This document shows, in pieces, positions 9,752 through 55,600 of a DNA stretch of 64,000 nucleotides. Both the position numbers and the translations under genes were made by a program. Location of the stretch: positions 1-64,000 of the forward strand of contig MQRK01219232.1 in assembly GCA_001938485.1 (NCBI GenBank), given 5' to 3'. The notes below the pieces were generated by a model, which saw only the letters and a list, made by a program, of their open reading frames with translations, made no database searches and was not told the origin of the DNA. This DNA is from Girardia tigrina (lineage: Eukaryota). The first letter of the stretch is position 1; each line of letters opens with the position of its first letter.

Positions 9752-10796
9752 TGTAAAAAAATGTGATAAAATAAAAAAAAACTAAAGTAAATAAATATTC
9801 TACAGATCACAAATAAAAATGTAAAAAAAAATAAAACAAATAAATACCCTACAGATCACGCGAATCAAAATCACACGCCAAAAAAAACAAATTATACGTC
9901 ACAAACAAAAAATGTTAGCATAAGCTCTCTATAAAAAAAATTAGATCGTACAAAAAAAAATAAAAAGTTTATACAATAGCCCCCCTTCAGAAGTGGAACG
10001 TATACTAAGGGGTATTATTTTTAAATTTCGATGACTCTGTAAACCATTAAATGAATTAGATATTACTTGTGCTGTGTTGTTATCAAAGATGGTTGCTTTA
10101 AAAGGTCCATTAAAACGATTCCCAAAAGTAGACGGCTTGTTTATTTTTACATATACATGTGCGTCTTTGGTTTGTATGCTCGGTGAGTCAGAATTAATGT
10201 GTTTAAAGATTTTTATAAACGTTTTTTTACCGCACATTCTTTCTAAAGGTAAAGTTACCAAATTGTAATTAGGTTTTAACCGTAAAAGATTATCCAACCA
10301 ATTGGAATCGTTCCCTTTTAAGCGTAGAGATTGTTTTAGATACCTATTAAAGATCTCTACTTTACCATTAGATCTTGGATTGTAGGGAGTTGTTCTAATT
10401 TTTTTTATCCCGTAGGTCTTGCAAAACATTTTGAATCTTTCNNNNNNNNNNNNNNNNNNNNNNNNNNNNNNNNNNNNNNNNNNAGGACCGTATCGACATA
10501 TCCAATTTTTAAAAATTACATTGATCATTTTATCTGTAGAGATCTCTTTGACAGCTATTGCTTCAAACCAAGAAGAAAATCGGTCAATGATGGTGACTAT
10601 ATATTTTTTATTTCTGTTAGGTGGGAGGGGACTGATAATATCTACATGTATTATATCGAAAAGTTCGCCGTCTTCTAATTTTAAACATTTAATTCGCTGT
10701 CTTCCCTTAGATTTTTTTTATTACATTCAGCGCATGAATTTATATAATTTTTAACGTCTTTGCGCATGTTGTACCAACAGGTATCTCTATTTTTTT
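9752..10796 (-). mobile_element. 3' end of a second Gypsy family: integrase, PPT and short 3' LTR
   Basis: WYNMRKDVKNYINSCAEC, IHVDII, IIDRFS, TTPYNPRSNGKVE and a GPF motif. The PPT GAAGGGGGC is followed by TGTATA at 9975 (LTR about 9752-9975). Confidence 0.82.
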
Positions 10797-11713
10797 TACA
10801 TGTTCCAAAAATTTAATTTCCGTTTTTAAGATATGGTACTTTTCCGGATTAATTCTTAAACCTGCTTTCCCGATTTGGTCCAATACTTTATCCAAAGTTT
10901 CGTAATTTTGTTCCAACGATTTTGAAAATATAAGATTGTCATCTAAATATACCACTGTCTGTTCTATGCCTCCGAGCACCTTTGTCATGAGTTCCTGAAA
11001 CGTTCCCGGTGCCGCTGCTATACCAAACGGCATTCTATTGAAACAAAATTGTCCTAACTTTGTGGAAAATTCTGTTTTTAGCTTTGAATCTTTCTCTAGT
11101 TCGACCTAGTAGTATGCATTGCCTAAATCAATTGATGTGAAGTATCTGGTTCCATACAATCTGTCCAACATTTCTGTCATATTTGGCACAGGAAATGCCT
11201 AACTCTCCGTGACTAGGTTTAGCTGTCTAAAATCCAAGCACATTCTAAAATCATTCTTTTCTTTCTTCCATACACAAATCATCGGTGTATTCCATGGTGA
11301 AATAAATTTCTTAATAATGTTGTTTTCCCACAAATTCTTAATAGTCTCGTCGATCTTTTCTTCCAGATTAACTGGTTGCCTATGTGGTCTAAGGTTAATT
11401 GGAGGTCCTTTCGTGTTTATTCTACGTTTAATCATCGTCGTACATCCGATATCCCATTTATCCGCCATAAAAACTCTTTGATGTTTTTTAACAATATCCA
11501 CAATCTTTGGTTTATCTGCAATTTTCATAATTTCCATGGCTCTTTTGAATCTTTCTTCGTTTGTAACCTTACGTCCAAATTTGGCTTCTAAGTTACATAT
11601 TTGATAAAATTGTTCGTTCACATCATTTTCTTTCTTTTCCAATGTAACTCGATTCCAAACGCCATCTGCAGTTCTATTCCTCCTATTATGTCTGGTTTTA
11701 CTTCATTTACTAC
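10797..11713 (-). pseudogene. Gypsy reverse transcriptase of the host element (stops present, RNase H missing)
   Basis: SPWNTPMICVWKK, RMCLDFRQLN, IDLGNAYY, RMPFGIAAAPGTFQ and VYLDD. Confidence 0.95.
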
Positions 11714-14274
11714 TGTTGGAAGTTTGATACGTTTAATGCTGGGTATAATAAATTGAAGTGACGTTTAAAATAATTCTGTTCAAGCAAATATATAATTCTG
11801 AGTTAAATCAACTTTAATCGAAGGCTGCGTTGCTTGTTCGTAGCTCGAACCCAGCTCAATATTTGATACTGTAAATTTTATTTGCAATTGAGATCAAATA
11901 ACAAATACTATACAATTTTATATTTGATAATCACAAAAATTGTACATGGAACTTTGAAATGATGATTGAGGCTAAATAAAAATTTGTTTTGAACTTCTTT
12001 GAAGTTTTATATTTGATTTTTGCTTTGTATTTTATTTAAATTTGGTGTTTAAATTTTGTGCGTGTTTTCTAAATTTTTTGAGGGTATTTATACCCGATTT
12101 TTATTTTATTTAAAATAATAAAAATATAAAAAAATATTATTTAATTAAAAAAAATATTTAAAATTATTTTAAAACTTTTATTATTATTATTTTTTAAATA
12201 TTCGCAACATTTGTTACGAACAATCAAACAAATATTGTCTAATTAGTATAATTTCAAATCACCTTTTTTGAATATCAGCAACATTTGTTGCGAACTTATC
12301 ATGGATAAAAATAATTATTGTAGATGAAAAATAATTATATTCAGATGATTTATGCATTCCTTTGGGCGATGAAATGACACCGATTGGTGATACCGATCAC
12401 TCATCGCCCAAGAGGAAAATTTCGGATTTAATTTTCATTTTTTTTCTATTCTTTAAGGTAAGTAAGTTATTCTTTTTTTTAATAATAATTAATAGTAATA
12501 ATAATAATAATAATAATTTTAATAACAATAATAATTTAAATCCCAATCACAATAATAATAATAATAATAATAACAATCTACCACTACAATTTCCATAATT
12601 ATAATAATAATAACATAATAGTAATAATAGTATTAATAATAATAATATTAATTTTAATAATACAATTATAATAATATTTTATAAATAACTAATTGTAATA
12701 ATAATGATAATAATAATAATAATAATAGTAATAATATAACTTTTTATTTATATTTAATTATTTATTTATTTTTTTTAAAACACCACAATCCTTTGGCGAA
12801 CTTTTCCGCCCAAAGCAGGAGTACTCTCATAATGAATGGGTACCTGCGGAGGAAGGAAAAACTCGCCGTAAAGGAATAATATAATAATTTTAATTCAAAT
12901 TATAATAGTAATAATAATAATAAAATAAATAAAGATAAAACTAATAATATTATGAATGAATNNNNNNNNNNNNNNNNNNNNNNNNNNNNNNNNNNNNNNN
13001 NNNNNNNNNNNNNNNNNNNNNNNNNNNNNNNNNNNNNNNNNNNNNNNNNNNNNNNNNNNNNNNNNNNNNNNNNNNNNNNNNNNNNNNNNNNNNNNNNNNN
13101 NNNNNNNNNNNNNNNNNNNNNNNNNNNNNNNNNNNNNNNNNNNNNNNNNNNNNNNNNNNNNNNNNNNNNNNNNNNNNNNNNNNNNNNNNNNNNNNNNNNN
13201 NNNNNNNNNNNNNNNNNNNNNNNNNNNNNNNNNNNNNNNNNNNNNNNNNNNNNNNNNNNNNNNNNNNNNNNNNNNNNNNNNNNNNNNNNNNNNNNNNNNN
13301 NNNNNNNNNNNNNNNNNNNNNNNNNNNNNNNNNNNNNNNNNNNNNNNNNNNNNNNNNNNNNNNNNNNNNNNNNNNNNNNNNNNNNNNNNNNNNNNNNNNN
13401 NNNNNNNNNNNNNNNNNNNNNNNNNNNNNNNNNNNNNNNNNNNNNNNNNNNNNNNNNNNNNNNNNNNNNNNNNNNNNNNNNNNNNNNNNNNNNNNNNNNN
13501 NNNNNNNNNNNNNNNNNNNNNNNNNNNNNNNNNNNNNNNNNNNNNNNNNNNNNNNNNNNNNNNNNNNNNNNNNNNNNNNNNNNNNNNNNNNNNNNNNNNN
13601 NNNNNNNNNNNNNNNNNNNNNNNNNNNNNNNNNNNNNNNNNNNNNNNNNNNNNNNNNNNNNNNNNNNNNNNNNNNNNNNNNNNNNNNNNNNNNNNNNNNN
13701 NNNNNNNNNNNNNNNNNNNNNNNNNNNNNNNNNNNNNNNNNNNNNNNNNNNNNNNNNNNNNNNNNNNNNNNNNNNNNNNNNNNNNNNNNNNNNNNNNNNN
13801 NNNNNNNNNNNNNNNNNNNNNNNNNNNNNNNNNNNNNNNNNNNNNNNNNNNNNNNNNNNNNNNNNNNNNCAAAGAGTAAAATATTTATAATTTTTGATGA
13901 AGTAAAACAAATATTTATAATTTTAATTCCAAGTTTTGTTAGACTAAATATTATTTTATTTGAAATTAATAATTTTATTAAAAGAATTGTTTAAAAATTT
14001 TCCTTTATAAAATTTTATCAAAAGTGTTCACATGTATTTTTTCAGAACCCTAACATTCCTATATATTTCTTTATTGTTATTATCCCAATTAACCGCCTCG
14101 CGTCCCTGAGCAACGTGCCAAAAAAAGGGAAGGTTAAAATGGGATTATGCGTCCTGTTTATTAATTTATTTATTTGATTTATTTATTTATTTATTTTTAA
14201 ATTTATTTTTATTTAGGAGAGCGGAATACTAATTTTATATATTTTATTATTTTCCTATTTAGAGAATCCCAACA
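11714..14274. mobile_element. LTR-type insertion (probable solo LTR, spans an N-gap) with CTAC TSD
   Basis: CTAC|TGTTGG...CCAACA|CTAC has perfect terminal inverted ends and interrupts pol between protease and RT. A related copy starts at 63769. Confidence 0.88.
12480..12760. repeat. (AAT)n-rich low-complexity tract
   Basis: Visible aataataat runs. Confidence 0.9.
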
Positions 14275-14830
14275 CTACAATGAACGTTATGTTTCTTCGT
14301 TTTTCTTTAATTTCTACGTCCACTGAAATTTTACCCATACAATCCAGTTGACTACTGTTCGCACAGTTTAATTTAATATCTGCCTTTTCTAATTTTACTT
14401 TCGTTAGTTTCTCAAATATCTTTCTGTGGATTACATTTACTCTTGCACCTGTGTCTAATAAATAATCCTCCACGTTACCTTGTATCATCAACTTTATACT
14501 CGGCCGGCCTTGCATTCTATCATACAATATATTTTCTGCTTTCCTTTCATCTATTGACAAAATCCTGACATTTTCTTCTGTGTTCTCTTCTTCAATTGTT
14601 CCCACTAAACATCGTCCAAGCTTTTCCTCAAAAGTTTCTTTCTTTATAAATTTCCGTACTTCATCATTTACTCTTGCTTCACTTATCTCAACATTCCTTT
14701 CGTCGTCTATCACTACGTCTATAATATTTGATATATTACTTCTACTATAAATACCAATACTTTGGGAGTCGCTGGTATCCTTTAATTTATTGCCCCGACT
14801 GGCTCCACTTCTGTCGAGGTGTTGCCTTTT
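14275..14830 (-). pseudogene. Retroviral-type aspartic protease, start of pol
   Basis: YLLDTGARVNVI motif. The frame is open upstream and overlaps the gag end in the -1 frame. Confidence 0.9.
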
Positions 14831-15926
14831 GGATGTTCACTTCCTGTAACCGATTCTTCATATTCTTCTTCAATATTATTCACGAATCTTCGATTATCTC
14901 CTAGTCTTCTGTCTTCTCTCTCTCTATATCTTTGTTGATTGTAGCCCGATCCTCGATAGTTATTGCCACCTGTATTTTGCTGTCGTCTTCTGCCATTTAG
15001 GTTTGTATAGCATTCACGTTCACTGTGGCCTTTATCTTGACATCGTTTGCATTCGATGTTTGGACAGTTTCTTCTTACGTGTCCCTGTTGTTCAAACCCA
15101 TAAAATTTTATTGGTCTCCTTTCCGAACAGTTTCTTATTATGTGTCCTTCTTTTCCACATCCGAAACACTTGATTGGTTTTCTTTGTCTATACGTTTCAC
15201 TTGTGTGTCCTACTTTTTCACAATTACTACATTTGACTGTTTTTCTGCCTTGAGAGTATTCTGTATTCTTTCTACCAATGCCTGTCTGATTTTGTCCGTA
15301 TTTACTGTATCCTGTTACTACTCCACTTTAACTCCGGGTCTGTTTTGCATCCCCTGGTCTCTTACTACATTCACGTCTTCTGTAACACTTTTGACGTCAT
15401 GTACTGCCTTTATCTTTTCTTTTATCTCATCTATTCCTTTCACTTTGTTAAGTCTCCCTTCCTTTTTTATGTCCACATCATCACAACAATGTAACAATAA
15501 TGCTTCTGTGAGGGCCTCTTTTGACACGTCATGTTTCAAGATCTTGACTGCCAGCTTTTCTACTTTCTCAAAAAATACTTCCGGTATATCTTCCTCCATC
15601 CTGTACCGGCATGCCTCAGTCAGGTCTTCGAATAGTGAGGAAGTTCGAGCGAATGTCTTTCTCAATCGGTCTTTATAACCTACTATTGTCTTATCTACCA
15701 CATTGTATCGATCTTTCAGATCTCTGTCCAACAAACAAACGACTATTGTCTCTTGTTTGGCCTTCGCTATTCCTGCAAAATTAAAGAATGTTTCACATTC
15801 TTCAATAAATGTCTCCACATTTTCGCCTTTCCAGTACTTTTCAGGTAACAGTTGACTCGTGAAGATATTCATTGCAGCGTTAGTCGCCATGTGAGAGGTG
15901 GTTGCAACATCGATATTCGAGTTCAT
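14782..15926 (-). pseudogene. Gypsy gag with four CCHC zinc knuckles (some degenerate)
   Basis: ORF 15926-15318, then CSNCEKVGH, CFGCGKEGHIIRNC, FYGFEQQGHVRRNC and CKRCQDKGHSEREC. Confidence 0.85.
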
Positions 15927-16212
15927 TTTTTTAACACCAAAATTTATTTCTATAACAATTCACATATTTAAAACAAATTTTCCTGTTAATTTATTATCTC
16001 GCCACAGATTAATCTATTAAATTCTTTTCAATTCAATTGTTAAAATCCTGAAAATTTATTTCAAAAATTTATTTTAAAAATTATTAAAAATTTATTTTCA
16101 AAATTTATTTCAAAATTTATTTAAAATTGTTTATTAAAAATATTTTTATTTATAAATAAATATTTAAAATTTTATAGTTTTCTTAACATTTATAATTTTA
16201 AGATATTTAATA

Positions 16213-19222: not shown

Positions 19223-19582
19223 AATAGATACATTAAAAGATATTTTTTATTTTTAAATAGATATTTAATTTTTTATGATTTTCTTTTATTATATCATTTT
19301 TAATTTTTTAAAATATTTAAAAACACATTAAAAAATATTTTATTTTAGAAACGTTTTTGATTTTTTAATATTTGTTTTATTATATCATTTTTAATTTTAA
19401 AATATTGAATAAGCACAGTAACATTAAAATATTTTACCCTATAAAATAAAAAATAATAAATTATTCAGGCAAGATAAAAATTTAAATTAACCCCTCATAA
19501 CCATGATGAATGCCGGATTAATCGGACTCACGGAGTCATTTCTAAGTAAGCGAAGAGTTTTATCAGTTAGCACCGAAGTCGT

Positions 19583-19809
19583 GGGGAAAAGGAAAGTCAT
19601 AAAGGCTGGCCTCCGACATTGTTTCGGGCCAGACTGAGAGGTACTCGTTAATGCATAACCAATTTGTTCTTTGTAAATAGTGTGTAAATAATGATTGGGT
19701 CTATCCCCTTCGTTCGTGTTTATTTTATTATTTGATGTTATTTTAATTTTTCGACTTTATTTTTATTACAATTTGTTTTCTCCTTTAATTATTTATGACT
19801 GGTGACCGT
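19583..19809 (+). mobile_element. Short LTR (19595-19800, AGT...ACT ends) with upstream PPT and downstream PBS-like motif
   Basis: GGGGAAAAGGAA|AGTCATAAA...TTTATGACT, a 9-nt perfect inverted end, overlapping TGGTGACCGT. Confidence 0.55.
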
Positions 19810-21091
19810 AAAGATAAAGGACGTTGTTAAATATATGTGATCAAGTTTAACTTCAAGTTTTGGTTGAGCATAATAAGTGATGAATTTAATAATTAAATTT
19901 GCTAATGAAGAAATTTTGATAGTTCGTTCTATTATATCTCTGATCCTGTTTTAGTAAAAATTTTCTTTTGAGAAATTGTTATCCTATTTAATAAATATCG
20001 TAATCGTCATTTAATAAATTTCGTTTATAGATTTCTTTTATGGAATTCATTTGATAAACCTCTCTTGTTTTGTAAATAAACTTTTCAATGAGATGAAGCA
20101 ATTAACTTGATTGTCTGATCAAAATTGGGTGTTCAATGAAATTGTGTTAATGGTATTTGAATTTAATCCTTTGTAAGAACGCAGGTGCAACTATTGGCTC
20201 GTTATTCGAACTAATTTGTTCAAGCGACTCCATATAAGTTTCTAACAATCTCTCTGACCTAGCTTTGTCGATAGGCTTCAAGGCCATGGAATGACAGAAT
20301 TTAGAGGAATCTCCTCTCAATAGTCAATTTTGAATTATTATCTCACAATTTGCGAATTCATCAAATAAATGAGCATGGTTAGATATAAAGTATAAGCAAA
20401 TTAAAGGTAGTCAAGTAGAGTAAAGCCTTGTCACATGCAGCCAAGTTAACCAAGAACAACATGAAATGAGTTTCCGTTATGAACCTTAATTGAATCTATG
20501 TTTAGAGCGAAGAACCTTTTGGAGACGGTGCCGGTTAACCAAAGAATGCATATGGGCACGTGGTTCAACCGTAGCTTGTTTCTTTGGGGTTCCCTTCGTT
20601 CCTTGTATTCTAAAATGATGAGTTGTATCAGCTGAAAGTAATAATATCTACCTCTCAGTATCTGAGCTACCAGTTGGGCCATACTCGGTACTGGTAGAGA
20701 ACCCGAATGTACACACAACGTGTTGATGTGAGCAAAGGAGATGCGTCTGTTCCTCGAGAGGATATAGTTTAGTGAATCTTGTGGTAGAGTCGCCGTTGAA
20801 CTCTACTTGTTACTAGAGCAGTTGATCGTACGGTCCATCGTGGAACATGATTGTCGGAAGCTCTTTATGTGTGGTCCACAACTGATCCACCAATAGTTCA
20901 GCTGTGAGATGGTGGGATCGTGTGTGTTAACTTCTGACAGGCCTCAGGCGGAAATCCATTTATTCGAGTCATGTGCGCGCTGAGCCGTACTCATCAGGAA
21001 AGAAAAACGTGTCTGGCAGTGACAACGTATGCAGTCCAGCAGGTGTTGGCGTTTGTGATGGCCCTATGTCGACCGAGAAGTCAGAGACGTC

Positions 21092-21315
21092 ATCTGGATC
21101 CCCCAACATAAAAGATGTGGCAATCGAGAGCGGTGTCGGTCAAGATGCCATATTCTCGGAGTAAAAGATTAAGATGTAGTGATTTAAACCCATGATACAA
21201 CATTATTGGGGGCCCTGTGCAGTCGATAAAGGGTTTTAATTAAGTCGCCCATGCGGTCATAGGTTGAGACTCGACTTGTCGTAATGACATCCCCTTTGAT
21301 GAATACGGTGATGCT
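21092..21315 (-). pseudogene. Ubiquitin-like domain ending in diglycine (one frameshift), within a longer decayed ORF
   Basis: ITVFIKGDVITTSRVSTYDRMGDLIKTLYRLHR/PIMLYHGFKSLHLNLLLREYGILTDTALDCHIFYVGG aligns by eye with the ubiquitin pattern (L.DYNI...TLHL..RGG). Confidence 0.55.
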
Positions 21316-22689
21316 TTTGAACGATTGGTTCGGTGTGCCTATTCCACAGAGTGTCTATAAATTGTCGTGGAGCGGTGTGCATAAGAACCTGTAAAGATGG
21401 TGGTAGATAGAAGAAATAATGTTTATTGTGATGCGTGTGGGACAATTATTGTGTTTTTAAATCAGAACAGCTGCCATTTGACAAATAGTAAATTACCGTC
21501 GTCTGATCAGTGATACATTTCTCAGTCGTTTGCCCATCCTCTGAAAGTCGGCCGGATCTTCCAATAGCCCTCAGACAGTGAGCGCATGCCGGTCCGCTCG
21601 TCATTTTCGGCCGTTTTCAGAACATGTGCAAACTTGAAAGATTAAAAGAAAATGACACGATCAAGTATCGACTGAAATCCAGGACGAGAACGACTTTTGA
21701 GTCGGTGATAAAATAATATTTATTTCCAAAAGAAATAACGAACATGTTTGTTTATTTATTAATTCAAATTTTACACTTATTAGTGTGACCTTGTTTGTTG
21801 TTAATGCCAATTTTAACTTTCTTGGCCATCTCTCGCTCTCCGACATCTTGGAGCCACCACCTCCAACCATAATTTATGACCCTAAAGAGGACCGTCGGGC
21901 GTTCGCTGTGGCCTTCAATAAATCGTGTCCCGACAACCATTACGTAGATCAAACCAGAAACACTCTTGAAACCACCTTTTTTCTTGATACCACACTAAGA
22001 TATTATGTAAAGGGAGTCGTAGAGTTAATATTTTAAACATAATCACGAAACAATATTGTTCAGTTGTCTGAATGTTTAAATTAATTCTTATGTAGGTAAA
22101 TCAATTTCCATGTAAAGATCCTTTGTATTAATAAATTTGAAAATCTCATTATTTGACTCCTAAAATTACCATAGATTTAAAGGTTATGACTAACAACCTT
22201 AATGTTTTTATTATAAAATGTAAAAATTGATTGTTTTTCAGGTTTTCAATTCTTATTGCCAGTTTTTATTTACTTTTTACAAATCATATCTGATCAATAA
22301 TAAATAAAACGAAAAAAAAACACGTAAAAAGATCCAAACGTTTTTTATCAATAGTTTCTGAAATTAAAAATTCTACTACTGCAAAAAATACCCTGAAACT
22401 ATCTCAATTTCACAGATTTGTTTTACTGAATAACTTTAATTTACTTTTTAAATTAATAAATTCATATTTCACAAGTGTTTTGGAAATCATTATTTCTCAT
22501 TTGTGATATAAAGAAACAAGAACATATTTTTATCCGTTTTGAAAATTAAGAAAAGAAAAAAATCGTATGAAAAGTATTTAATATATGTTTTTTTTATTTT
22601 GTTTGTTTTTATTTTTTTTTCAATTGGTATTTTTGAAATTAGTTTTGACGAAAGAAACTAAAAGTAACACACCGTAAATTAAAACTCAA

Positions 22690-25600
22690 ATGAATTCCGA
22701 GTCGATAAAAAACTCTTTCAACGATTGTCCGAATAGTAAATTGGAAATCAAAGCGAATAATTATAATAAATCGAAGACGTTTAATGTGCAAGAGAGTGTC
22801 GATAAACATTTGAGTCGAGTCGACAGCCAGAATGATCCCGATGTCACCGAGAACCTCGACAATATCGCCCGTAAAATGGGAATCAATCAATCAAATAACG
22901 TAAATCGATAAAATTATTATACAAATTGTCCTTTTGAATCTCTATCAAGAAAGAATTAATTTTTTTTAAAATAGTTTTTTTAATAATTTCCATTTTTATT
23001 GTGATTTTTTTCAATCAATTTTTTATCACAAATTTATTTGAGAATATTTTTTTAAAAATAGAGATATTAATTTTGTATAATTAAATCCGATTTTATTCGA
23101 ATAGAAAGAAATACTAAAATAGCATTCTGTCATCAACCGTAATACATGTTTTTATATATAAATATTTATGAAATTTTTGAAATAATTTTATAGTTTATTG
23201 AACTTTTTTAATTTGAAATCGAAAATTCAATTTTTAAAAATATTGATTTATTTTCATTAATTTTTTAATAAAATTCAATGTATTTTTTACTTTTGCAATT
23301 ATTGAAAGAATTTTTTTGAATATATATAAATTTATCTTATTTCATTCGCTTTTTTGAATATTTTTGAATCAATATTTATTAAAAACTAAAATGTATTGTA
23401 AATAATGATTTAGTGATAAATTTGATGATTAAAATGAATAATTAAAAAAAATCAGAGTTAAAAAAAGTAAATTATTTTTAAAGTTAGAAATAAAATTTTT
23501 GTTAATTTGTTATTGATATTTTTTCACTATCAAATCCGAATAAATTTAAACAGAATTAAATGGGAAACTTAGGTGAAATATCTTTCTGACCCATATCAAT
23601 AAATCAAATAATGTAAATCGATAAAATTCTCTACGTGTTCTCTATCGAAATAGAAATATATATTTATAGCAGTCCCTAAATAATTCCTAATCACCTAAAA
23701 TATGTTTCCCTTATTACAATCACTATTTTTTTTAATATTGTAATTTATCAATATTTATTAAGAACTATAATATATATTAAATTATGATTTAGTATACTTA
23801 AGTTAGAAATAAAAATTTTGTAATTTTAAAATGATAATTTTTTTTTCACTATAAAATTTGAATATATTCCAACAGAATTTAATGGGAAACTTGGGTGAAA
23901 TACATTTCGGTCCAATCAAATAAGGTAAATCGATGAAATCATTATACAAATTGTCGATTTGAATCTCTATCAAGAAAAAATTAATTTTTTAAATAGTTGT
24001 TTTTAATAATTACCATTTTTATTGGGAATTTTTCGCAATCACTTTATCAAAAATTTTAATTTATACGAACGGAATCAAATGTTAACATACCTTTCTGTTC
24101 TATACTGAAATCGAAATATTTATTTATGACAGTCCCTAAATAATTCCTAATTCGCAAAAATATAAATTCCCATTATTAAAATCGTTATTTTTTCATATTT
24201 TTGAATAAATATTTATTAAGAAATATAATCTATATTAAATTATAATTTTGTGATTTTTGATGATGAAAATAATTAATTTTGTTAAAAAAGTAAATTATTT
24301 TTTAAGTTTGAAATAAAATTTTTGTTATTTTAATCCTAACGTTCTGTCGCATATCAATCAAATGAATAATGCAAATCGATAAAACTATTGTACGAATATT
24401 CCTTTTGAATCTCTATCAAGAAATAATTAATTTTTTAAATAGTTTTTTTAATAATTATTATTTTTGTTGTGACTTTTGGCAATCAATTTTTTATCGCAAA
24501 TTTATTTGAGTATATTTTTTAGATTAGGAATAATATTTTTGTAGAATTTTTGTTTACTCTATCAAATCCGAATTTATTCGAAAGGAATTAAATATTTATA
24601 TACCATTCTGTTCTCTACCGAAATAGAAGTATATATTTATAGTAGTCCCTAAATAATTCCGATAAATTTTTTTTGAATGTTTGAATCAATACATTTTAAG
24701 AACTATAATGTATATTAAATTATGATTTAGTAATAAATTTGATGACTGAAGCGATATTTAATCAGAAATTTAATGCATATAAAATTATGATTTGTTACTT
24801 TTGAGGTTGGAAATGAATAATGTTGTTTAAAAACAAAACTAATATTTTATATGTATTTTAAAATACTGTAATTTTTCATCATTTAAGAGTAAAACGAAAG
24901 AATACTTAGCTTTTAAAAATGTAGTCAATGAAATAAGAGATGAAAATTATAATTCTTAACAGTAACAGTAAATATACATATGCTTGACCACGAGTATATT
25001 TTTAATTTTGGTAGGGGCCAGAACGCTATTTTACCATCAAACTTTCAAAGAGATTTTTCAATCAATTAATCTAATTCTAGTAACTAATTATTTTTCTAAA
25101 TAAATTTCCAGTAAAATCCGTGCTAAAAGTTTTCATTTAATTCAAAAAATTAAAAGCCTTGAAATGAAATTGAAAAAAAATATAAATTAACATACAATCT
25201 ACATGTTTACTGTTTGATAGAATATTTCTTCAAATATTTAAAACATTTTAAAGAAATTTAGATTACATCAAATTTACAAAAGAATAATGAAGAATAGCTC
25301 TACTTCTTGGTCGATGTCTATCATCTGTAAATGTAGTCATCAAAAAATGTTAGCTCGGTATTAACTATTGTTGGACTGTTATGGTACAATTTTTTTAATC
25401 TTAGTAACTCAGGAATAATCAAGTTTTTCTACATAATGTTTTCTACATAACCTGTCTATTCCTGCAAAATGATGTTTCGAATGACGTCTATCTTAAAAGG
25501 GATGAAGTAGTACTGTCTTAGATTTAATGTGTCCGAATGAAAATCTCAGTTCCAAATTATTTAGACTAAACGAATTCTACTGCAAAAATATTTTAGATTA

Positions 25601-40600: not shown

Positions 40601-43600
40601 ATCGAATTCGAGTACCTCGGAAGATCTGATCGAACAGGAAGTCAAACTGAACGCTGGTATCAATCCACTCAGTAATGATGTTATAAGTGATGTTAGTTAA
40701 ATTGTTTTGGGAAATATACCAATAATATTTATGTGGTTTGTTACTTAGGAGTTCCCTGATCTCGAAAACACAAGTCCTCAAACCGATATTGGTAATTATT
40801 TTTTTTGTAAATTCGTCGTGATATATAATTTTAATTTTGTATTTATTGAAATATTTTTCAATGTTTATTGATTCTAAACTTATTTGGATTTATTCTGAGA
40901 CAAGTTTATCAAAATCGTTTTGTTTTCATAATGAAATGTATGATAATAATAACCGAATGCTTGTGAGAAATATTAAAGTTTTCAATGACTATCATTAAAA
41001 TATATCTATTATGACATACGTTCGTACGTCTGTCTGTCTATTAATCTGTCTGAATTAATCATATTCTCGACAGCATCATTTGATATATCGATGCGATACA
41101 TTTGTTATGAGAATAAACATCACTGATCGGATAATTGATCGGGTTCCGCCATACAATTTTGTTCTCTGATTTTTTTGTCCTGCTGATTTAAAAAATGTAA
41201 ACTTAATTTTTTTTGTAAATTAGTAAAATCTGTTTATTTTTTTCGAACATTTGATTCAATATTGTTCAAATTAATAATTAGTATTAACAATTAATTAAAT
41301 AACAAAAATTGTCCGACAGTTTAACCGTCATTAATTAATTAATTATTAAAATATTCATTAACATTTTTAGTTTCTTTTTCATTATATTAAAAAACCAGGA
41401 TTTAATCCAAAGGACTGGTTTGTTAAAGGACTTAGTTCACAGAGTTTGGAATTTGTCTTACAATTTAAAATGGTTTAAATGTTCTTAGAGGACGATTGAG
41501 CGCAAGCAAACAGATATAGATTAAGGTTACATTTGACAACTGATGTAGCACAAACAAATTATCAAAATGCTCTATTCTGAAGGATTTAAAGCATTTAAGA
41601 AGAGTATTTACAAGAATACAAGTAGTGTCAAAGTGGTTTTAATGACATTAAAAGTTCAAAGCTTCCTCTCTAATAAATTGAAAACGATTTGTGGATGTCA
41701 AGCTAATCTGATTTATTATTTTAATTTTCACTGGTGTAAAAACTCGCACAATGAAGATACAAATCGTAATTTCAAAACCCAGATTAGTGAGCATTCACAA
41801 TCAAGTCGATCGAGTAAGGTTCTTGATCATTGGTTACATTGTAAGATTAGAATCTCTTCTGTTTCAAAGGATGAGTTTTCTGTTTTACAGAAGCGCTTTG
41901 ATTCACACTATGAGCGCCAATTTTGTGACATTTAATTTTCAAAATTGGCAGGGTTGCTCAGTCTCAACTCTTAAAATTTTTTTTGCGATTAATATCCAGT
42001 AAAATCTTTATTTAAAATTTCAAAATTAATTAAATTATTTTAAAATTTAATATTTACTGATAAAATCTACAATTATTTTACACATTACATAATTGCAGAT
42101 GATTGAAAATGAAGTTCCTAAACATGTACAATAATCAATTTCTTTAACAAGCTTTAACAAAATTATTGTTGATATATATATATATATATATATATATAAT
42201 GTTAACAATTGTTAATTTAAGATTAAATTAATTATCAAAAAGTGAAGTAACATAAAACCAAGATACAAATTAAAAATAAATTTCATTCACAGTTGTCTCG
42301 TATCATAGGACAGGAAGCCTAGTATGAATAATTGTCCTCATATATTACTTGTCCATCCGTGTTTAATTTATTCATGGAACAAGTATGATTTAATCATGAT
42401 ATTAAGGCCTGTTTTCATATCGTTATTTATTAGCTTTGCTTTCTTTGAGAGCAAAAAAAAATCTAAAATGAACAATATATAAATTTTTTTTCATCTATTT
42501 TTGAAAAAAAATTGTGAAGATTTGTTTTAAAATGTTATCATAGACCTAATAAAATTTTATAGCTATTTTTATGACATAGTTAATAAAAATCACATATTTT
42601 GCTTGGTTATCGCATTTTATTTACTTAAATATCATAATAATCAAATAACCGTAACATCATTTCAATATGAAATGTAATAATATTCTTAGAATAATTAGGA
42701 ATAACGTAAATCTTTTTTATTTTGTTCTCTTTTCATCGGTACGTTTTTTAAATAAGTTTGTACCACCTTGAACTCCTTAGTTTATTCATATTATTCATCT
42801 CTAAGTTTATTTGTAATATTAAGAATTCGAATTTTGTATAGATTTGGTTCACTGCGGAGATGCCTTGAATTTTCTGTTAAGGTACTATTTTTAACTATGT
42901 TTTCCCATCGCATGTTACTTATCTATATTCTTGTTTGATTTTCATGGTTAAATGGTCTTTCAAAAATTAGACTGATCCATTTCCATTATCGTAAACATAT
43001 AATAATCAAAATTTTAAATCGATTGAATTGAATTGTTTTGGGAGATACCAATATACATGTAATGACCGCAATGATCTAGACATCGGAGAGACATTCCGCC
43101 ATCTCAGTCAGAGAATCGAAGAACCTGGGTATTGATGAACACAAATATTTTCACAAATATAATACTCCTCTCGGTTTGTATTCCAATCTTGTTTATAAAT
43201 ATACATGTAATGGGTGTAAAACCACATACATTGGAGAGACATCTCGTCATCTCTGCAAACGGATCAAAGAGCATAGTCGGTTGGATAATGGGAGCAATAT
43301 TGCCGAACATAATTTAAAATGTAAAAAGAAAATCGGAGAAAATGATTTTAAAATTCTGTGTAATCGATTTAAAAATTACTGGAAGAGAGTAACGTGTGAC
43401 GCCTTATTAATAAGATCCATGGATCCAAAAATTAATATTCAAGCTTCACACTCAACTTCAAATAGAGCCTTTATTACATGATTGATTACATAATCATCTT
43501 TCTCATATATAAGCTGCAAAAAGCCAGTGTTAATTTAGGTAACCAGACAATTCGACACAAGACAATTCGACACACGACAATTCGACACAGACAATTCGAC

Positions 43601-46600
43601 ACAAGACAATTCGACACAAATTTTTTAATTCGACACATTTTTAATTCATTTCGACACAATTTTTTTTAATTCGACACATTATTTTAATGGGACAAATATT
43701 TATTTCGACATTTTTAAATTTCGATTAGTTTTTTTTTAATTCAACACTTTTATTTAATTCGACCAATAACTAAAATGAAATATTTTCATTATTACTATAC
43801 ATATTTTGAAACTCGACATTTTCAATAACTATATTTTTGGTTAGACTAATGAGTTTTTCTGTTTTTTAATATGAAAAAAATCAATTTTTATGAAAAAATA
43901 TGTATTTACTATGAAAAATATGTATTTAATATAAAAATATGTATTTAATATAAAAATATTATTTTAATATGAAAAAAATCAAATTTTATTAAAAAATATG
44001 TATTTAACATAAAAAATATGTATTTAATATAAAAATATCAATTTAATATGAAAAAAATCAATAAGACCCAAATTTTTTAATTCCACACATTTATTAATTC
44101 AACACAGCAAAAGTTAATTTTTAACATTTTATTCATTGCAAATTAACTAGCCAACGCAAGTATTTCCGTTTTTCATCATTCTATGCATTCAAATTGTATT
44201 CTTGCACAGCCATTGCAATAGCCTCACTCAATTATACATATTTTTTCTTTACAACCACAGGGCGACCTGACAGAGCATTTGCCAAAGTCAGTCTGTGACA
44301 AGCTATATCTCTTCCAAGTCCATCAAGCAAGGTCCAAACACTGGGGTGGCTGCATTGAAATATAGCATTAATAGCATTGTGGAAACCTTCACAACAATTT
44401 GTAGTTTTTCGTGTCTGCTCACCAGCAGAATCGAAATGGTTCCAGCATTTTATTGGAAACCGAGGAGCTCTACCAAGAGCACCCTCAATATAAGTTGATA
44501 AGAAATATGTGAGAATTGATTTTTTTCATATTAAAATGATATTTTTATATTAAATACATATTTTTTCATGTTAAATACATATTTTTTAATAAAATTTGAT
44601 TTTTTTCATCTTAAAATAATATTTTTATATTAAATACATATTTTTATATTAAATACATATTTTTCATAGTAAATACATATTTTTTCATAAAAATTGATTT
44701 TTTTCATATTAAAAAACAGAAAAACTCATTAGTCTAACCAAAAATATAGTTATTGAAAATGTCGAGTTTCAAAATATGTATNNNNNNNNNNNNNNNNNNN
44801 NNNNNNNNNNNNNNNNNNNNNNNNNNNNNNNNNNNNNNNNNAAAAAAAACTAATCGAAATTTAAAAATGTCGAAATAAATATTTGTCCCATTAAAATAAT
44901 GTGTCGAATTAAAAAATTTGTGTCGAAATGAATTAAAAATATGTCGAATTAAAAAATTTGTGTCGAATTGTACGTGTGTCGAATTGTCATGGAACCGTTA
45001 ATTTAGTCTGAAGATGGCGGGTAATCCGCCGAAATTAATTACAAAAATAAATTGTGAAAAATGGCGTTCACTTTTTAATAATGAATATCAATTGTCATTA
45101 TTTTTTACATTCCTTAGTAAATATATATAAATATAAAGTTCGAAATTGTGTTTATTAAAAACCTATTTCGAGGGAGTTTGTCTGTAAAGCATTTAATATC
45201 ATGTCCTGAGTAATTAGTATACGTTTTCCAAACTACTTCTTTATTTACAAAATTAAATATTTTAGGAACTTTTATACAAATGATTCGGAAATGACAGAAA
45301 ATATTAATGTACAAGCGGCTCTCTCAACAACCTTATTGAATGACATAATTATTCATTGATTATACAATTACTGCTTGCATATAATCAGATTTGAAATTCG
45401 TGTTTATTCTCGATGTCCTGACGAAATTAATTGTCAGAAAAAATAAAAATTTGTTTTCTAAAGGTCGACTTTCTACATTTAAATTTAACATTACTAATTC
45501 TGAATTAAAATGTTTATGAAATATACGAATAAATGAATTTTGTGAAGTTAGAGTTGATAATTTTTTTATTCTCAACATCCATGACTAAAGTTTAGTTTTT
45601 TTGAAGGTCATAGGGGTTCAATTGTCGTCCTGCAAATTAGTGACTTTACTTGACTTCTTTTACACTTGTTTATATAAACATTGAATGTATTTATATTAAG
45701 TATATTTTAACGTTTACTACTTAAGATTTTCATAGTCGTTCTTTATAGACATTTTTATTTATTGAAAAATATTAGTTTATATTCGGGTAATATTGCAGAT
45801 AAGATATCACCCCTTTCAATCAAAACTTCCGAATTCAAATTCGAATCACAAAGGTCCTGTCATTCAACAATTTCAGGTGCATATCACACAGGTATTTTAT
45901 TTGCATTATTTTGATTTTATTCTTAATAATGACATTTTATATCTTCTAAAATAATATAATGATGGATATCTTCTTTGCCGGGAGGGTTTTTCAATAATAA
46001 TATTTTTAAACTCATTTTCATTTTCGTAACTTTCTAATTTTTAGGACATTGAGCAAACTAATTTATTAATATTAGCAAAAGACAAACTGATTGAATTTAT
46101 TTTATAGTGCGACTTTTGTATACATTACATTAGTTTTGTTGTAAAGTAAATTTACGAACGTACAAAAGTAAATGAAAAACATGAATACGATTTCGAATAA
46201 GTTTTTCAACTGTCCAGTTTGGTATAAAGTTCAAATGAGAGTCGACAATTTGTCAAACGCGTCACACTTCGTCATCCCTGTACCGCCTTACGGAACTAAA
46301 GTGTCTGATGTATTTCATGTATGTTTTATAGTATTTCCGAAATGCATATTTATACAATTTCCAGTTCTTTGAATCTACGTGAGTGTATTTTAATTAAGGT
46401 ATAAGTTGGTATCTATTATACTACCCAAATTCAAATGTATTCGGACACGTAAAATAATTCTTATTAAAAATTTTAAATTATAAATAATATGTACTTAATT
46501 GTATTATAGATGAATTAATTTGATATTTTACGATATTTGAATTTGAGAACAAATTTTTAAATGCGAATAAAATTTTTATTAGTTAACTTTTTTATTTGAT

Positions 46601-49600
46601 TTCTTCAAGTTATTTTAGTATTGTATTTAGATTATCGTAAAATATCAAATTAATTCATCTATAATACAATTAAGTACATATTATTTATAATTTAAAATTT
46701 TTAATAAGAATTATTTTACGTGTCAGAATACATATGAATTTGGGTAGTATTAGGTCAAAAGTAATGTTGTTTTTTTATTGAAGATTAATTTTATTTTTTT
46801 GGCAAAATACAAGTATTTACAATAAAGTCTTCTTTTATATCTACTATACCTAATTTCTGATAATATTTCGATGCATCTTCGAATTGCTGTTTCTGAGATA
46901 TTTTTCTTCGAAAAATAGGATTTGTATCATCTGAATAAAATATTCTATTTCTCACTTATGAAAAGAGGAAAATCAATTATTTTCATACTTAAGCAAAGCT
47001 TGTAATTAGGTATAGTTTTATACGAAAAGGTTGCATGATTTAGTTGGAAAATTTAATATGTCCATTTATACGTTGTTCCCTTTTTAGCAAGATCAAAAAG
47101 AAAACTCCCTTTTACTATAAGTGAAAGTAATTACATACTTAAAATCGTTTAGATCTTGAAGTATTTTCTTACGCAACACAATAAACTCTCTGATTGATAT
47201 TTCCTCCGGAAACAAATTAGTACTGAAATTGTGTGTTTTCTTCAGTAATAATTTACATAAATTATTAATCAATATGTGTTCCTCAACATCTTATTATGTA
47301 TTTTCAAGAATTTCAAACAGAATATTTGAAATAATAAAATAGTAACAATACAATAATAACGTACTAAGCGAACTTATCTTCAGGATTTCATGGGGGATAA
47401 TAATAAATGCGTAAAATAATACGTACATTCATTTGTCTGGAGGTTTGGTTGAATATTGGACAGTGTAGTTTTGACCAAAAGTTAATTTTCAAACTTTCAG
47501 TAATATATAATACAAAAAATCAAATAAATCATAGATAATTTATTTCCAAATAAAAGTAGGATTTAGTAATAACTACTAATAGAGATTGGTAGTGCGACTT
47601 ACTAGAATGATTACGAGTTGAGTAGATGTATGTAGTAGATGTTCATGTGTTTTGATCAAATTGATTTGATAGAATTATACACTTATCCTGCTCATTTAAT
47701 TAACTTGATCGTACATGTATGAATGCCCATGCTTTAAACTCAATTTGTTGGTATTGCTTCAATGAGTAATATTTTGGACTCTTTTAATGTGGGTAGTAGA
47801 AAAACTGCTCACAACCCCACATTCGATATTGCAGAAACAAATCCAAATCACCCGCTATCTCTTTCTTATAACAACATATTATTTTATCTGTAATTTTTTT
47901 TTCAGTGTTCGTGGTTATTCATGACATTTAAAAAGTACTTGAGAACATTCATCTAATTAAATAGGTGAATTTTAATTAATCTCGCAGTACATTTGAAATA
48001 TTTATCACCGAGAATAACTTTCAGAAATCTGACCAAACTTTCTCTTGCAGTTACATCAGCGTGATTAGAAGATTTTAATCGACACGTACCTGAACACTTT
48101 ATTCTTAATTGGGTACTTTTGGATTTTTATATGTTTTTACTATTTTCTTGCATTTTTCATAATTCAGCTTGGCATGCTTCCACATACCTTTTCGTTTCTT
48201 TGTCGATACTGCCGGAAAACACCGAAGAGAGCGCCGTGTTATTACTTACAACAAGGATTTTGCTAGTTATCTTCAATCGCCTCTTCTAGATATTTCATAA
48301 TAATTCATCGCTCTTAAATGACGAATTTCATTTGACTGTCTTTATATATAACTTTGCTTCCAATATCTAACAAGGGAGAACTCATGTAAGAGATAGTGGC
48401 ATATTGTTACTGACTTCTACGGCATTTAAATCAAGAATACTCTGCATTTGTCATTTTTATGTATTTTTTGTCTAACATAAACTGAAAGCAAAAGCGAAAA
48501 TGAAATATAAGTTTTATTTGAAATACAATTTACGAAAATGAAATAGAATTTTTATCTTTCGAAAATTCAATGAAAGTTATTCAAAATACCTATTATATAC
48601 ATATTATCTATTAATGTACATCAAACATTTTGTCAGACGTAATTGTTTATTTTATTCATGCAATAGAATTATTTGTTTATTAAATAATATTTATAATTAT
48701 TGTATTCTGATTTTATTAAATTAATTGTTCTATCAGTGTATCAATCTTCAAATTTGATAATTTTAATTTCGATACGTTCATTTTTGGGTTGTTTATTTAA
48801 TTGCAAAATTGCTTCAGATTCTAGCAAAGTTAAACTAACTCTTGCTTTATATGGGTATTCGAATTACGGACTCAGTTCGTCACGCTTGACTAGTAAATCG
48901 TGTATGGAATTTCGATCACACAGTAATACTGATAAAGTAAAACTATCTATGGAAAATATTCCTATGGATAAAGCGACGGAAGCAAATGAAGCTGTTGACA
49001 CAATAGAAAAGATCGAATCCAATCAAGAAATAAAAGTTGAAAATGAAAACATCAGATCAAATATTAACGGTGATAAAGAACTTGAAGTAAAGGATACTGA
49101 AGTAAAGGAAAATGAAATAAATGAGGTTCAAATTCGACCAAGTGAATTGAATGAAAATAATGAACAGTCAAATGTCGTTGTAAGATTTGATTTATCATAT
49201 TATTTAATTTAGCCTTTTTTACCATGCTTAAAATTTTAATAAAAATTATAAAAATTATACTAACAGTGGTAAAATTTTGTGGACATGGTTTCTATCATGT
49301 TTATATAATGTTAAAAATTATACTTCATTAATATATTTAACTCAAATCATAAACAAGTCGTAATAACTATTATAATTATAACAAATTAATTATTAATCCT
49401 TAATATTAAATACAACTTATATTTTTGTTTCTCTAATCTTTGAATTTTCCATTTCTACTGCAAGTTCATCTAAGACATCATCGCGTCCATGTTCAACTTC
49501 CGCCACTCTTAAATACCATCTTCGTATACAATTTCTAATTCATCAATAATATCCTTTCCACTCATTTTCAGCACCAAGTACCTGATAACACTTCTGAGTT

Positions 49601-52600: not shown

Positions 52601-55600
52601 AATATTTAAATATTAAATTACATATTATTTTATACTTAACGAACATGACATTTTTATATTTAATTATCGTTCAGCTCCGAAAATCACAACGTCCGCATGA
52701 TATAAAAATCCGAAAGAGTCGAGTATGTTATATTTTTATTACAATTTGTCTTGAATTAGATCTTGAATTGATTTATATGATAAGTTTTCAATGTTGATTT
52801 TTTTTCCTAACAAAAGGCTTCGAAGTTATGAATCTGATTTCCGTAATTAATTGCTTTTACAAAATATGTTGGATTTGTTTTGTCATACAAAATATGTCTT
52901 AACAAAAATAGCTTTTTCACAATAAAATTTTTTTTAATTTATTATAATTTAATAAGTAACCCTTTTAACTCTAGAGTAATCGAGTTAATTCGTTGTATAA
53001 ATAGAAAAATAAAATAATTATAATAGCGATCTGCACAAATGATTTCTAAATCAGCAACCGTGTAAGGAAAGAATACTGTACTCATTACATATCATGGTCT
53101 TTAAATAAATTTATGGTGGCGACTATTAAATATATGACAGAGAAAAATTGGCGCGATGCCAACGGGCATAACCAACCTGTTTATTTATATAATATTTGTA
53201 TATTCCACAAATCGAAACATGTCTGAAAGGATTTGTTTGATGATTCGATATATTTTCTTCATAAAAGAAAACTACTGCAACAATTAAAAGCATACAAATA
53301 TTTGACTTTAAAAATAAAATGTCCGAGAATCTTAACATAAAACATGTCACCGCAAACTAACGTTTGAACAGGCATGGTCACGTATTTGTGTCAGCGGCAA
53401 CGGATGTGGTAAATAAAAAGTAAATAAAAAAAATAAATAAAACATTCTCAATCTAATTTTTATTATTAATTATTATTAATTATTATTATTATTAAAAAAA
53501 ACTTTTGGAGGGATATCAAGATTTTGTTTCTGGGGATTATTATGAATTACCTTTTGCTACATTGTAAAATAAGGATACACCCTTTTATCAAATGACAATT
53601 GATAATGAGTTCNNNNNNNNNNNNNNNNNNNNNNNNNNNNNNNNNNNNNNNNNNNNNNNNNNAATTTTAAAAATTATGGTAAAAACACACTTATTATGAT
53701 GGATCTTGAACTCATTATCAATTGTCATTTGATAAAAGGGTGTATCCTTATTTTACAATGTAGCAAAAGGTAATTCATAATAATCCCCAGAAACAAAATC
53801 TTGATATCCCTCCAAAAGTTTTTTTTCTAAAGTAACAAATTTACGATCGATTTTGATCTCAACTTAAGCTGATAACTAGATGGTGAACTCGAAAAATTGT
53901 AAACCTATTTTTTTCAAATTTATAACAATAAACAAGCAATTAGGTTTATATTCCAATGTAAACTCCGCTAACTGCCATTGATTTTGATAATCGTGACACC
54001 ACACCAAAAATGCCTTGTTGGTTCGAAGCCAACAAATTCCAAACATAATCAAAAAATTTTCCTTGCAAGTATTTCTTCAGTTATCGGAAGAGCTGAAAAT
54101 CACTAGTGGCGAATGGGACTGTCTGGTGGGTGAGACTTCAGATATAATCTACATGACTCAGTTGTTGCTGTTGTCATTTGGGATGTGTAAATTTGGGAAT
54201 TGTCCTACAATAACCCGAAATCATTCTTTTCTGTTTGGTTCCTTAATCAGTTGTACATAAAAAAATTTAAAATTATTTTGACATTTGATTTAGTGAAATC
54301 CTCTACGGGTCTTCCTGGTTTTCCAAATCAAAAACAGTAGTGTGCTAACTTTTAAAAATACGAATATAGTTGTACATAACTGCTTTGCAAGTGAATTGAC
54401 TTTTGTTAGCGTTGTTCAGTTGTGCAATAATCCATTAGCTGCTAGTTTTCTTCAGGACCAAAAACTTTCTAATGCTTCGAAATTCAGCGTTATCTAACAT
54501 ATTCTGGCGAAATAATGAAATAGCTCGATTATTTTGAATATATAAGTAGCTTAAAACAACAAAAACCACTTTTCCGTACCTGCATATATATATATATTAG
54601 GGATAAAAACAAGACGACGCGTTTCGAGATAATAAAAATCCCATCATCAGGTCACAAATTACACTACGCAAGTACACTATATGGTAGCTTGCCGAAAATN
54701 NNNNNNNNNNNNNNNNNNNNNNNNNNNNNNNNNNNNNNNNNNNNNNNNNNNNNNNNNNNNNNNNNNNNNNNNNNNNNNNNNNNNNNNNNNNNNNNNNNNN
54801 NNNNNNNNNNNNNNNNNNNNNNNNNNNNNNNNNNNNNNNNNNNNNNNNNNNNNNNNNNNNNNNNNNNNNNNNNNNNNNNNNNNNNNNNNNNNNNNNNNNN
54901 NNNNNNNNNNNNNNNNNNNNNNNNNNNNNNNNNNNNNNNNNNNNNNNNNNNNNNNNNNNNNNNNNNNNNNNNNNNNNNNNNNNNNNNNNNNNNNNNNNNN
55001 NNNNNNNNNNNNNNNNNNNNNNNNNNNNNNNNNNNNNNNNNNNNNNNNNNNNNNNNNNNNNNNNNNNNNNNNNNNNNNNNNNNNNNNNNNNNNNNNNNNN
55101 NNNNNNNNNNNNNNNNNNNNNNNNNNNNNNNNNNNNNNNNNNNNNNNNNNNNNNNNNNNNNNNNNNNNNNNNNNNNNNNNNNNNNNNNNNNNNNNNNNNN
55201 NNNNNNNNNNNNNNNNNNNNNNNNNNNNNNNNNNNNNNNNNNNNNNNNNNNNNNNNNNNNNNNNNNNNNNNNNNNNNNNNNNNNNNNNNNNNNNNNNNNN
55301 NNNNNNNNNNNNNNNNNNNNNNNNNNNNNNNNNNNNNNNNNNNNNNNNNNNNNNNNNNNNNNNNNNNNNNNNNNNNNNNNNNNNNNNNNNNNNNNNNNNN
55401 NNNNNNNNNNNNNNNNNNNNNNNNNNNNNNNNNNNNNNNNNNNNNNNNNNNNNNNNNNNNNNNNNNNNNNNNNNNNNNNNNNNNNNNNNNNNNNNNNNNN
55501 NNNNNNNNNNNNNNNNNNNNNNNNNNNNNNNNNNNNNNTGATGATGGGATTTTTATTATCTCGAAACGCGTCGTCTTGTTTTTATCCCTATTATATAGAT

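Follow-up and report, generated by a model that had tools for sequence, protein, structure and literature searches.

Positions 19,810 to 22,689 of a 64,000-nucleotide stretch of the Girardia tigrina genome (contig MQRK01219232.1, positions 1 to 64,000; the whole stretch is called the window) include on the minus strand the remains of a long terminal repeat (LTR) retrotransposon, in whose family a ubiquitin-like domain (UBL) precedes the Gag protein. A first-pass annotation, made from the letters of the window, had described a decayed open reading frame (ORF) with such a domain at this place. The five peptides named in it were all located by six-frame translation; they lie on the minus strand and are spread over three frames. 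DNA searches in the window's own genome (G000; L and P numbers designate loci and proteins of this analysis) divided the interval into two repeats with separate sets of copies, 19500-20805 and 20818-21798. The following features were defined:

21521..21798, minus strand: remnant of the 5' LTR of the element; the full LTR has about 440 bp and is bounded by TG..CA in L020
21745-21743, minus strand: ATG of the LTR frame, which has one stop here and in other copies reaches the LTR end and enters the primer binding site (PBS)
21509..21520, minus strand: deletion junction; LTR 3' end and PBS are gone, about 105 bp relative to L016
21319..21508, minus strand: leader from the PBS to the UBL, in relatives rich in A/C and poor in G
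21099..21318, minus strand: UBL of about 73 codons, interrupted by a frameshift near 21230
21312-21229, minus strand: peptide ITVF..IKTL
21209-21099, minus strand: peptide PIML..YVGG
21008..21100, minus strand: acidic/proline-rich linker from the GG to the Gag core, in a frame different from that of the UBL in the window copy
21100-21041, minus strand: peptide DPDD..TPTP
20818..21007, minus strand: N-terminal part of a DUF7041-like Gag capsid, with three stops compared to open-frame relatives
20908-20828, minus strand: peptide LTAE..DGPY
20260-20216, minus strand: peptide RSER..SLEQ
19500..20805, strand not assigned: separate repeat A, an internal fragment of a unit of about 2.9 kb bounded by TG..CA, which includes the RSERLL peptide and a supposed PBS

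The element in the window is a dead copy of a CsRN1-like Ty3/gypsy element and is unable to make the UBL-Gag protein. Only a remnant of the LTR is left, the PBS is deleted, two frameshifts are present, and Gag is cut off at about 20818, with the remaining gag and all of pol gone. A single frameshift had been annotated before; the frame is indeed broken, but comparison with open-frame relatives places two shifts, one at about 21230 and one in a G-run at about 21100-21112. The di-glycine codons of the UBL are found at 21104-21099, the LTR frame shows 56% amino acid identity to the stop-free LTR frame of L020, and a splice-donor-like GTAA is located in the leader near 21496. LTR 3' end and PBS are retained in L016, L020, L021, L043, and L107. 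The window copy is only a dead member, and the finding reported here is the architecture of its family.

The UBL, about 75 amino acids in size, has the ubiquitin (beta-grasp) fold, as the first-pass annotation had expected of a domain ending in GG. The fold was established on open-frame relatives, the window copy itself being broken; the C-terminal piece of the latter matches the family profile with a probability of 99.0 (E 6.8e-18). Twenty-five natural genome copies align across 74-78 residues, the domain ends with LxGG in the open-frame relatives, and the GG is exactly in place in 18 of the 25. When the profile was compared with PDB sequences, all 24 matches at E<=10 were ubiquitin-like (best E 1.9e-4), and the GG of the family falls on the LRGG of ubiquitin. 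Searching Atlas yielded ubiquitin families with a score of 0.93. An AlphaFold2 model of the relatives' UBL revealed beta-grasp topology (predicted local distance difference test 87), and the top rows of a Foldseek search were all ubiquitin, SUMO or ISG15, which were also returned by VIA. Comparison of the folds gave Z 11.5 with a root mean square deviation of 1.7 over 70 residues. Single-sequence searches miss the UBL, which was detected only by profile, fold and Atlas: no ubiquitin family was recognized by Pfam in the window pieces or in P0001, a copy with an unbroken domain, and phmmer against PDB gave nothing useful. The G000 domain shares about 20% identity with ubiquitin, and the lysine aligned with K48 of ubiquitin is invariant in all 25 genome copies.

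Intact copies, for which a search had been proposed, were found as open-frame relatives within LTR elements. P0001 produced at least 130 matches in G000 (150 of 366 candidates scored) and a sister sequence at least 151 (150 of 933 candidates scored). In these elements the UBL is the front of ORF1, the Gag ORF. The GG is followed in frame by the acidic/proline-rich linker, a DUF7041-like helical capsid, a coiled coil, and CX2HX9CX3C (CHCC) knuckles, after which ORF1 stops and protease (PR), reverse transcriptase (RT), RNase H (RH), and integrase (INT) follow. A structure model of ORF1 is arranged likewise, with UBL, flexible linker, helical capsid, coiled coil and knuckles; the capsid was matched to no solved structure because the UBL filled the results of fold searches with the whole model. 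Among 25 loci picked by Gag similarity, four of which had contributed to the UBL profile, 21 have a UBL directly upstream, 13 of these in the same frame. Two knuckles are present in 26 of 36 proteins, one in five, and none in five that are shorter or truncated. The DUF7041 match stays below the cut-off in G000 copies (E 3e-4) and is above it in many relatives.

Downstream, L071 contains a weak RVP match, RVT_1 (E 1e-32) and integrase (E 1e-14 to 1e-16), and RNase H was detected in L075. Pairs of LTRs 4.2-5.3 kb apart (L020, L074, L088) define an element of about 5 kb, and a G-rich tract precedes the 3' LTR of L020. The PBS, TGGTGTCAGAAGT, directly follows the LTR end and reads TGGTG/ATCAGAAGT(GGGAT). 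It is probably of the tRNA-Leu type and differs from the tRNA-Trp PBS of the CsRN1 clade. By PR-RT-RNaseH-INT order, LTRs, PBS, polypurine tract, and target-site duplications, the element is a Ty3/gypsy LTR retrotransposon. The family is placed as CsRN1-like and not as a clade member, because the CHCC knuckle fits the CsRn1 group but the tRNA-Trp PBS is not found. A single-copy host gene or a Ddi1-like gene was ruled out by the at least 130 matches, the LTRs, and pol. The domain had been proposed to be borne by a transposable element, which is the case, and its GG is conserved; it does not belong to an accessory gene, however, but is the N-terminal module, on the sense strand, of the ORF that encodes the element's Gag.

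All 36 domains lack the Met that ubiquitin has at position 1, and therefore translation must begin upstream of the UBL. The frame is often open already within the LTR, or from an ATG at its junction with the PBS, and continues across PBS and leader into the UBL. In 15 of 27 distinct copies the spacing keeps PBS and UBL in frame, and 11 of these 15 leaders are stop-free, counts obtained from loci partly chosen for long open frames. The in-frame leaders fall into eight length classes (203, 218, 221, 233, 293, 587, 1076, and 1082). Of 39 database proteins, 15 have PBS-derived peptides ahead of the UBL, compared to 0.2 expected. For the LTR type of the window, a frame of about 100 codons begins with ATG and extends to the end of the LTR, and over the last 90 codons 13 stops were counted in the PBS frame versus 34 and 28 in the other two (9 copies). 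One sister sub-lineage has an LTR of 1.25-1.37 kb ahead of the PBS, at which the matches end. This INTS7-type LTR contains a frame of about 290 codons that starts with ATG, includes an intronless piece of INTS7, and runs on through the PBS into UBL-Gag. Solo LTRs of this type show perfect 5-bp target-site duplications in 10 of 11 cases; since the INTS7 frame reaches the LTR end, it would read into flanking DNA there. Intronless INTS7 pieces of varied lengths are carried by LTRs with a fixed TGTAGTGACAC cap (L141-L154, L184-L203), which end with TG..AA, not TG..CA; in total, 87 INTS7 Pfam matches are present in G000. In other sub-lineages (L074:434, L076:7568, L122, L123) an in-frame ATG (MVSE..) arises from the last base of the LTR together with the PBS; this start codon exists only at the 5' LTR junction.

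What precedes the UBL is diverse. Copies with near-identical internal regions bear different LTR ends, and in database proteins pieces of H2A, CNOT1, Rrp44, SCC3, 5'-nucleotidase, Hsp90, Arp8, and LRRC47 were found upstream of the UBL. The LTR frame of the window's sub-lineage gave no usable match in Atlas and none in Pfam, and host cargo is therefore not shown for this LTR type.

To the database relatives the following scope applies: a profile search of 1.84 billion representatives yielded 188 proteins, known from protein sequence alone, and statistics refer to the 150 listed. A scan of metagenome contigs with P0013 detected no locus. When at least 90 amino acids were present upstream of the Gag core, 39 of 47 relatives had [LIMVF]xGG 19-56 residues ahead of it, compared to 9 of 543 control windows; in relatives with less than 90 amino acids upstream the motif occurred in 8 of 103. 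In matches starting after the GG column, the GG was still there in 9 of 15. A GG obtained by chance is ruled out by the contrast with the control windows and by these matches, in which it lies outside the matched region. The Pfam ubiquitin cut-off was passed by P0013, P0018, P0050, P0061, P0081, P0133, P0153, P0160, and P0162-P0164. Compared with a ubiquitin unit excised from P0161, the domains of the relatives show 14-70% identity, and the GG is retained even where this value drops to 14-30%.

In a quick Gag tree (117 columns, supports from the Shimodaira-Hasegawa-like approximate likelihood ratio test only), 37 of 44 GG-bearing rows were placed in one group with the family (support 92), five in a separate group among ordinary Gags (support 99), and one row apart. 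The UBLs of P0013, P0018, and P0159, 68-70% identical to the ubiquitin unit, are nested among relatives with 14-24%, which suggests replacement by fresh host ubiquitin. Since GG-bearing rows fall into separate groups and near-canonical UBLs are nested among divergent ones, more than one capture of ubiquitin plus later refreshing is suggested. The distribution indicates that the UBL-Gag fusion is an old, widespread, clade-wide feature.

The reading that we prefer, with a probability of about 0.68, is that the window harbors a dead CsRN1-like copy of a family whose ORF1 places a Met-less UBL with LxGG before Gag, and that host deubiquitinases (DUBs) likely cut after the GG, a plausible site for these enzymes. 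The ribosome would start at the first suitable upstream AUG and read LTR or leader cargo, PBS, UBL, and Gag in a single frame. Cleavage by a host DUB after the GG would give Gag a defined, stable N-terminus, whatever precedes the UBL, and because Gag would thus be freed, the element could tolerate changing cargo in LTR or leader. The released leader-UBL piece would probably be degraded, and the invariant lysine at the K48 position could aid its disposal. The residue behind the GG speaks for processing, since ubiquitin-Pro junctions resist cleavage and small N-terminal residues are stable under the N-end rule. Pro does not occur there (0/39; background 9%), and 33 of the 39 relatives have S, M, A, T, G, or V (background 38%); these numbers overstate independence because the rows are related, and they include one mis-called row (P0133).

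A number of observations weigh against this proposal. The stop bias before the PBS is weak when all LTR types are pooled (64/73/87 in 27 copies), and many of the loci counted were picked for long open frames. In P0050 and P0153 the cargo comes after the PBS peptide, so that it is not always located upstream of the PBS. The sub-lineages share a conserved splice-donor-like site, 15-35 nt behind the PBS. At the G-run, the window's sub-lineage and the close relative L054 have UBL and Gag shifted by one base against each other, in the same sense in all five other copies examined (L016, L019, L030, L013, L054); the shift may stem from a dead founder copy or be a programmed one, and because of it only sister sub-lineages demonstrate the UBL-Gag fusion. 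No more than 12 of 39 relatives retain Arg at P3, and given this and the low identity of the G000 domain to ubiquitin, recognition by host DUBs is uncertain.

The preferred reading can be extended, tentatively and with considerable doubt, to a scheme in which LTR and leader form an exchangeable host-gene cassette and ubiquitin a release tag. Translation would then yield Gag plus a ubiquitin-tailed host fragment, the fragments would serve as decoys against host silencing, and ubiquitin would have been captured repeatedly and refreshed from host mRNA. The cargo found so far is largely concerned with transcription, RNA decay, and chromatin: INTS7 of Integrator, the CAF1-binding domain of CNOT1, Rrp44/Dis3, cohesin SCC3, Arp8, H2A, and Hsp90.

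An unlikely alternative is that the leader is an intron, by which a short first exon consisting of LTR end and PBS is spliced onto the UBL, and that its open frame results from G-poor composition; cleavage after the GG may be compatible with this as well. GTAAG or GTAAC occurs 15-35 nt behind the PBS in several sub-lineages, TTTAG immediately ahead of the UBL in one, and near-canonical relatives, judged from the proteins alone, start with FQIF, IQIF or VQLF as would fit an acceptor site. However, the donor-acceptor joint does not preserve the PBS frame, which is open from the LTR on, the frame is kept unspliced in all eight leader-length classes, and open-frame leaders of 1 kb are present in L074, L122, and L123. 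In sequencing run X1 (176 contigs) LTR depth was far above that of the internal region and DNA-like; the run contained no GT..AG joint and is silent on expression and splicing.

We regard it as rather improbable that the UBL stays attached as a type-II domain, acting as a folding aid, as a proteasome degron limiting the Gag dose, or in docking to ubiquitin-binding or endosomal sorting (ESCRT) proteins during assembly. The invariance of the K48-aligned lysine (25/25) would fit, and a domain of low identity to ubiquitin could escape DUBs; internal UBLs are also described for Burro in passages of PMC6431247. Yet what the clade conserves is the GG and a small non-Pro residue next to it, not the ubiquitin surface, and uncut Gag would bear variable N-terminal extensions of 100-500 amino acids. 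There is little to recommend a cut by the element's own aspartic protease, or a modifier role in which the freed UBL-GG is activated and joined to host proteins. The element does encode a protease further downstream, and the cut would leave a C-terminal GG, but LxGG is a signature of host DUBs and of the ubiquitin-activating enzyme E1 and is not known as a retropepsin site, and the divergent surface makes activation by E1 doubtful.

The first-pass annotation had proposed an accessory UBL gene running antisense within an element whose LTR and PBS lie at 19800; the UBL sequence does abut repeat A at about 20805-20818, but two repeats with separate copy sets, the lack of conservation of the PBS-like motif, and downstream frames that specify Gag leave this hardly tenable. 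TGGTGACC at 19801 reads TGATGACC or GGATGACC in all five other copies in which the motif was found, and it is situated in the middle of the continuous repeat of about 2.9 kb; because of this variation and the interior position, there is no support for an LTR end or PBS at 19800. The element's own LTR is on the other side (21521-21798), with its PBS deleted, so that the UBL is not antisense to a neighboring PBS. The linker and further frames noted after the UBL are the Gag linker and the capsid N-terminus, except for RSERLLETYMESLEQ, which stems from repeat A. Repeat A (window 19500-20805; L090-L095) has no long ORF and is probably the long LTR of another family, present as a solo LTR; one of its copies is inserted into the UBL of L020. 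In L024:2691-3230 (minus strand; G000:C152309) a second, unrelated UBL-like frame was noticed (Pfam OTU1_UBXL, E 0.0024), which lies 3' of a zinc-knuckle Gag-like frame, is broken by repeat A, and possibly belongs to a Burro-type element.

Some other sequences were noted in passing. Beside the LTR remnant, at 21800-22036 on the plus strand, a GC-richer open frame (..PPPPTIIYDPKEDRR..) could be a host exon or another insertion. By eye, other gypsy-type fragments (integrase, RT, protease, CCHC Gag-like) are recognizable on the minus strand at 9941-11702 and 14255-15959. A degenerate tandem array of about 450 bp and several long inverted repeats, some of them surrounding N gaps, occupy 22880-24810, 43550-44970, 46418-46750, and 53494-53826. 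Beside the element at L074:4880-7958 (minus strand) a cluster of small ORFs with an FtsK/A32-like ATPase-looking frame resembles, by eye, a polinton-like insertion.

The in-frame joining of a UBL-GG to a structural protein is shared with the ubiquitin/FUBI-ribosomal protein fusions (eS31, eL40, eS30), which undergo processing. These are host genes, start at ubiquitin Met1, and have no upstream leader. The closest working precedent is the cytopathic bovine viral diarrhea virus (BVDV) strain CP Rit, in which, according to the relevant passages of PMC8310069, an RPS27a fragment is followed by ubiquitin lacking MQI and cellular ubiquitin C-terminal hydrolases cut to give an authentic N-terminus. 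Such BVDV genomes are sporadic RNA-virus recombinants with near-intact ubiquitin, whereas here an old, clade-wide domain with 14-30% identity precedes a retrotransposon Gag, and cleavage is inferred. In the main text of PMC2582038 the CHCC knuckle and the tRNA-Trp PBS characterize the CsRn1 group (CsRn1, PwRn1, AgCR), which shares with the present family the compact LTR element, CX2HX9CX3C knuckle, a DUF7041-like Gag, PR-RT-RH-INT, and gag and pol in overlapping frames; the word ubiquitin is absent from that text. An N-terminal ubiquitin-GG, two CHCC knuckles in most proteins, PBS TGGTGTCAGAAGT, and an ORF1 opening in the LTR or at the PBS distinguish the family from these elements. Burro/GYPSM1, as presented in sections of PMC6431247, is likewise gypsy-type with a Ubi2/SUMO-like domain and captured host domains, but has 25-30 kb and an ORF of about 4,900 amino acids in which Gag comes first and the UBL has an internal place among MATH, BCL2, and env. 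Membership in Burro was ruled out by the size of about 5 kb, the UBL-GG before Gag, and the end of ORF1 after the knuckles. LTR elements capture pieces of spliced host mRNA, often in frame, as LTR-mediated retrocopies, with the cargo between LTR pieces of defective elements in the parts of Tan et al. 2016 (PMC5131818) that deal with them; here it is inside the LTR of a gag-pol family, upstream of ubiquitin-Gag. Fixation of extra domains by LTR elements is called rare in a passage of PMC9289625, and ubiquitin has 0 occurrences in the main text of PMC13524379. No description of ubiquitin-Gag fusions in such elements was found in the literature covered, and Repbase, GyDB, subscription papers, and supplements, which were outside its scope, may mention them.

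LTR retrotransposons are assumed to begin Gag translation at an AUG of its own behind the PBS and to use their own protease for its maturation. The lineage described here appears to give the first Gag cut to the host ubiquitin system, translating through LTR and PBS. If true, this would explain how LTRs carry changing host-gene cargo without harm to the capsid, and host DUBs would be a required factor, and possibly a restriction point, for a large family of transposable elements. What is sporadic in BVDV would become an old, stable, and probably repeated evolutionary strategy. For annotation, many proteins listed as ubiquitin plus DUF7041, or as a host domain plus DUF7041, are products of these elements.

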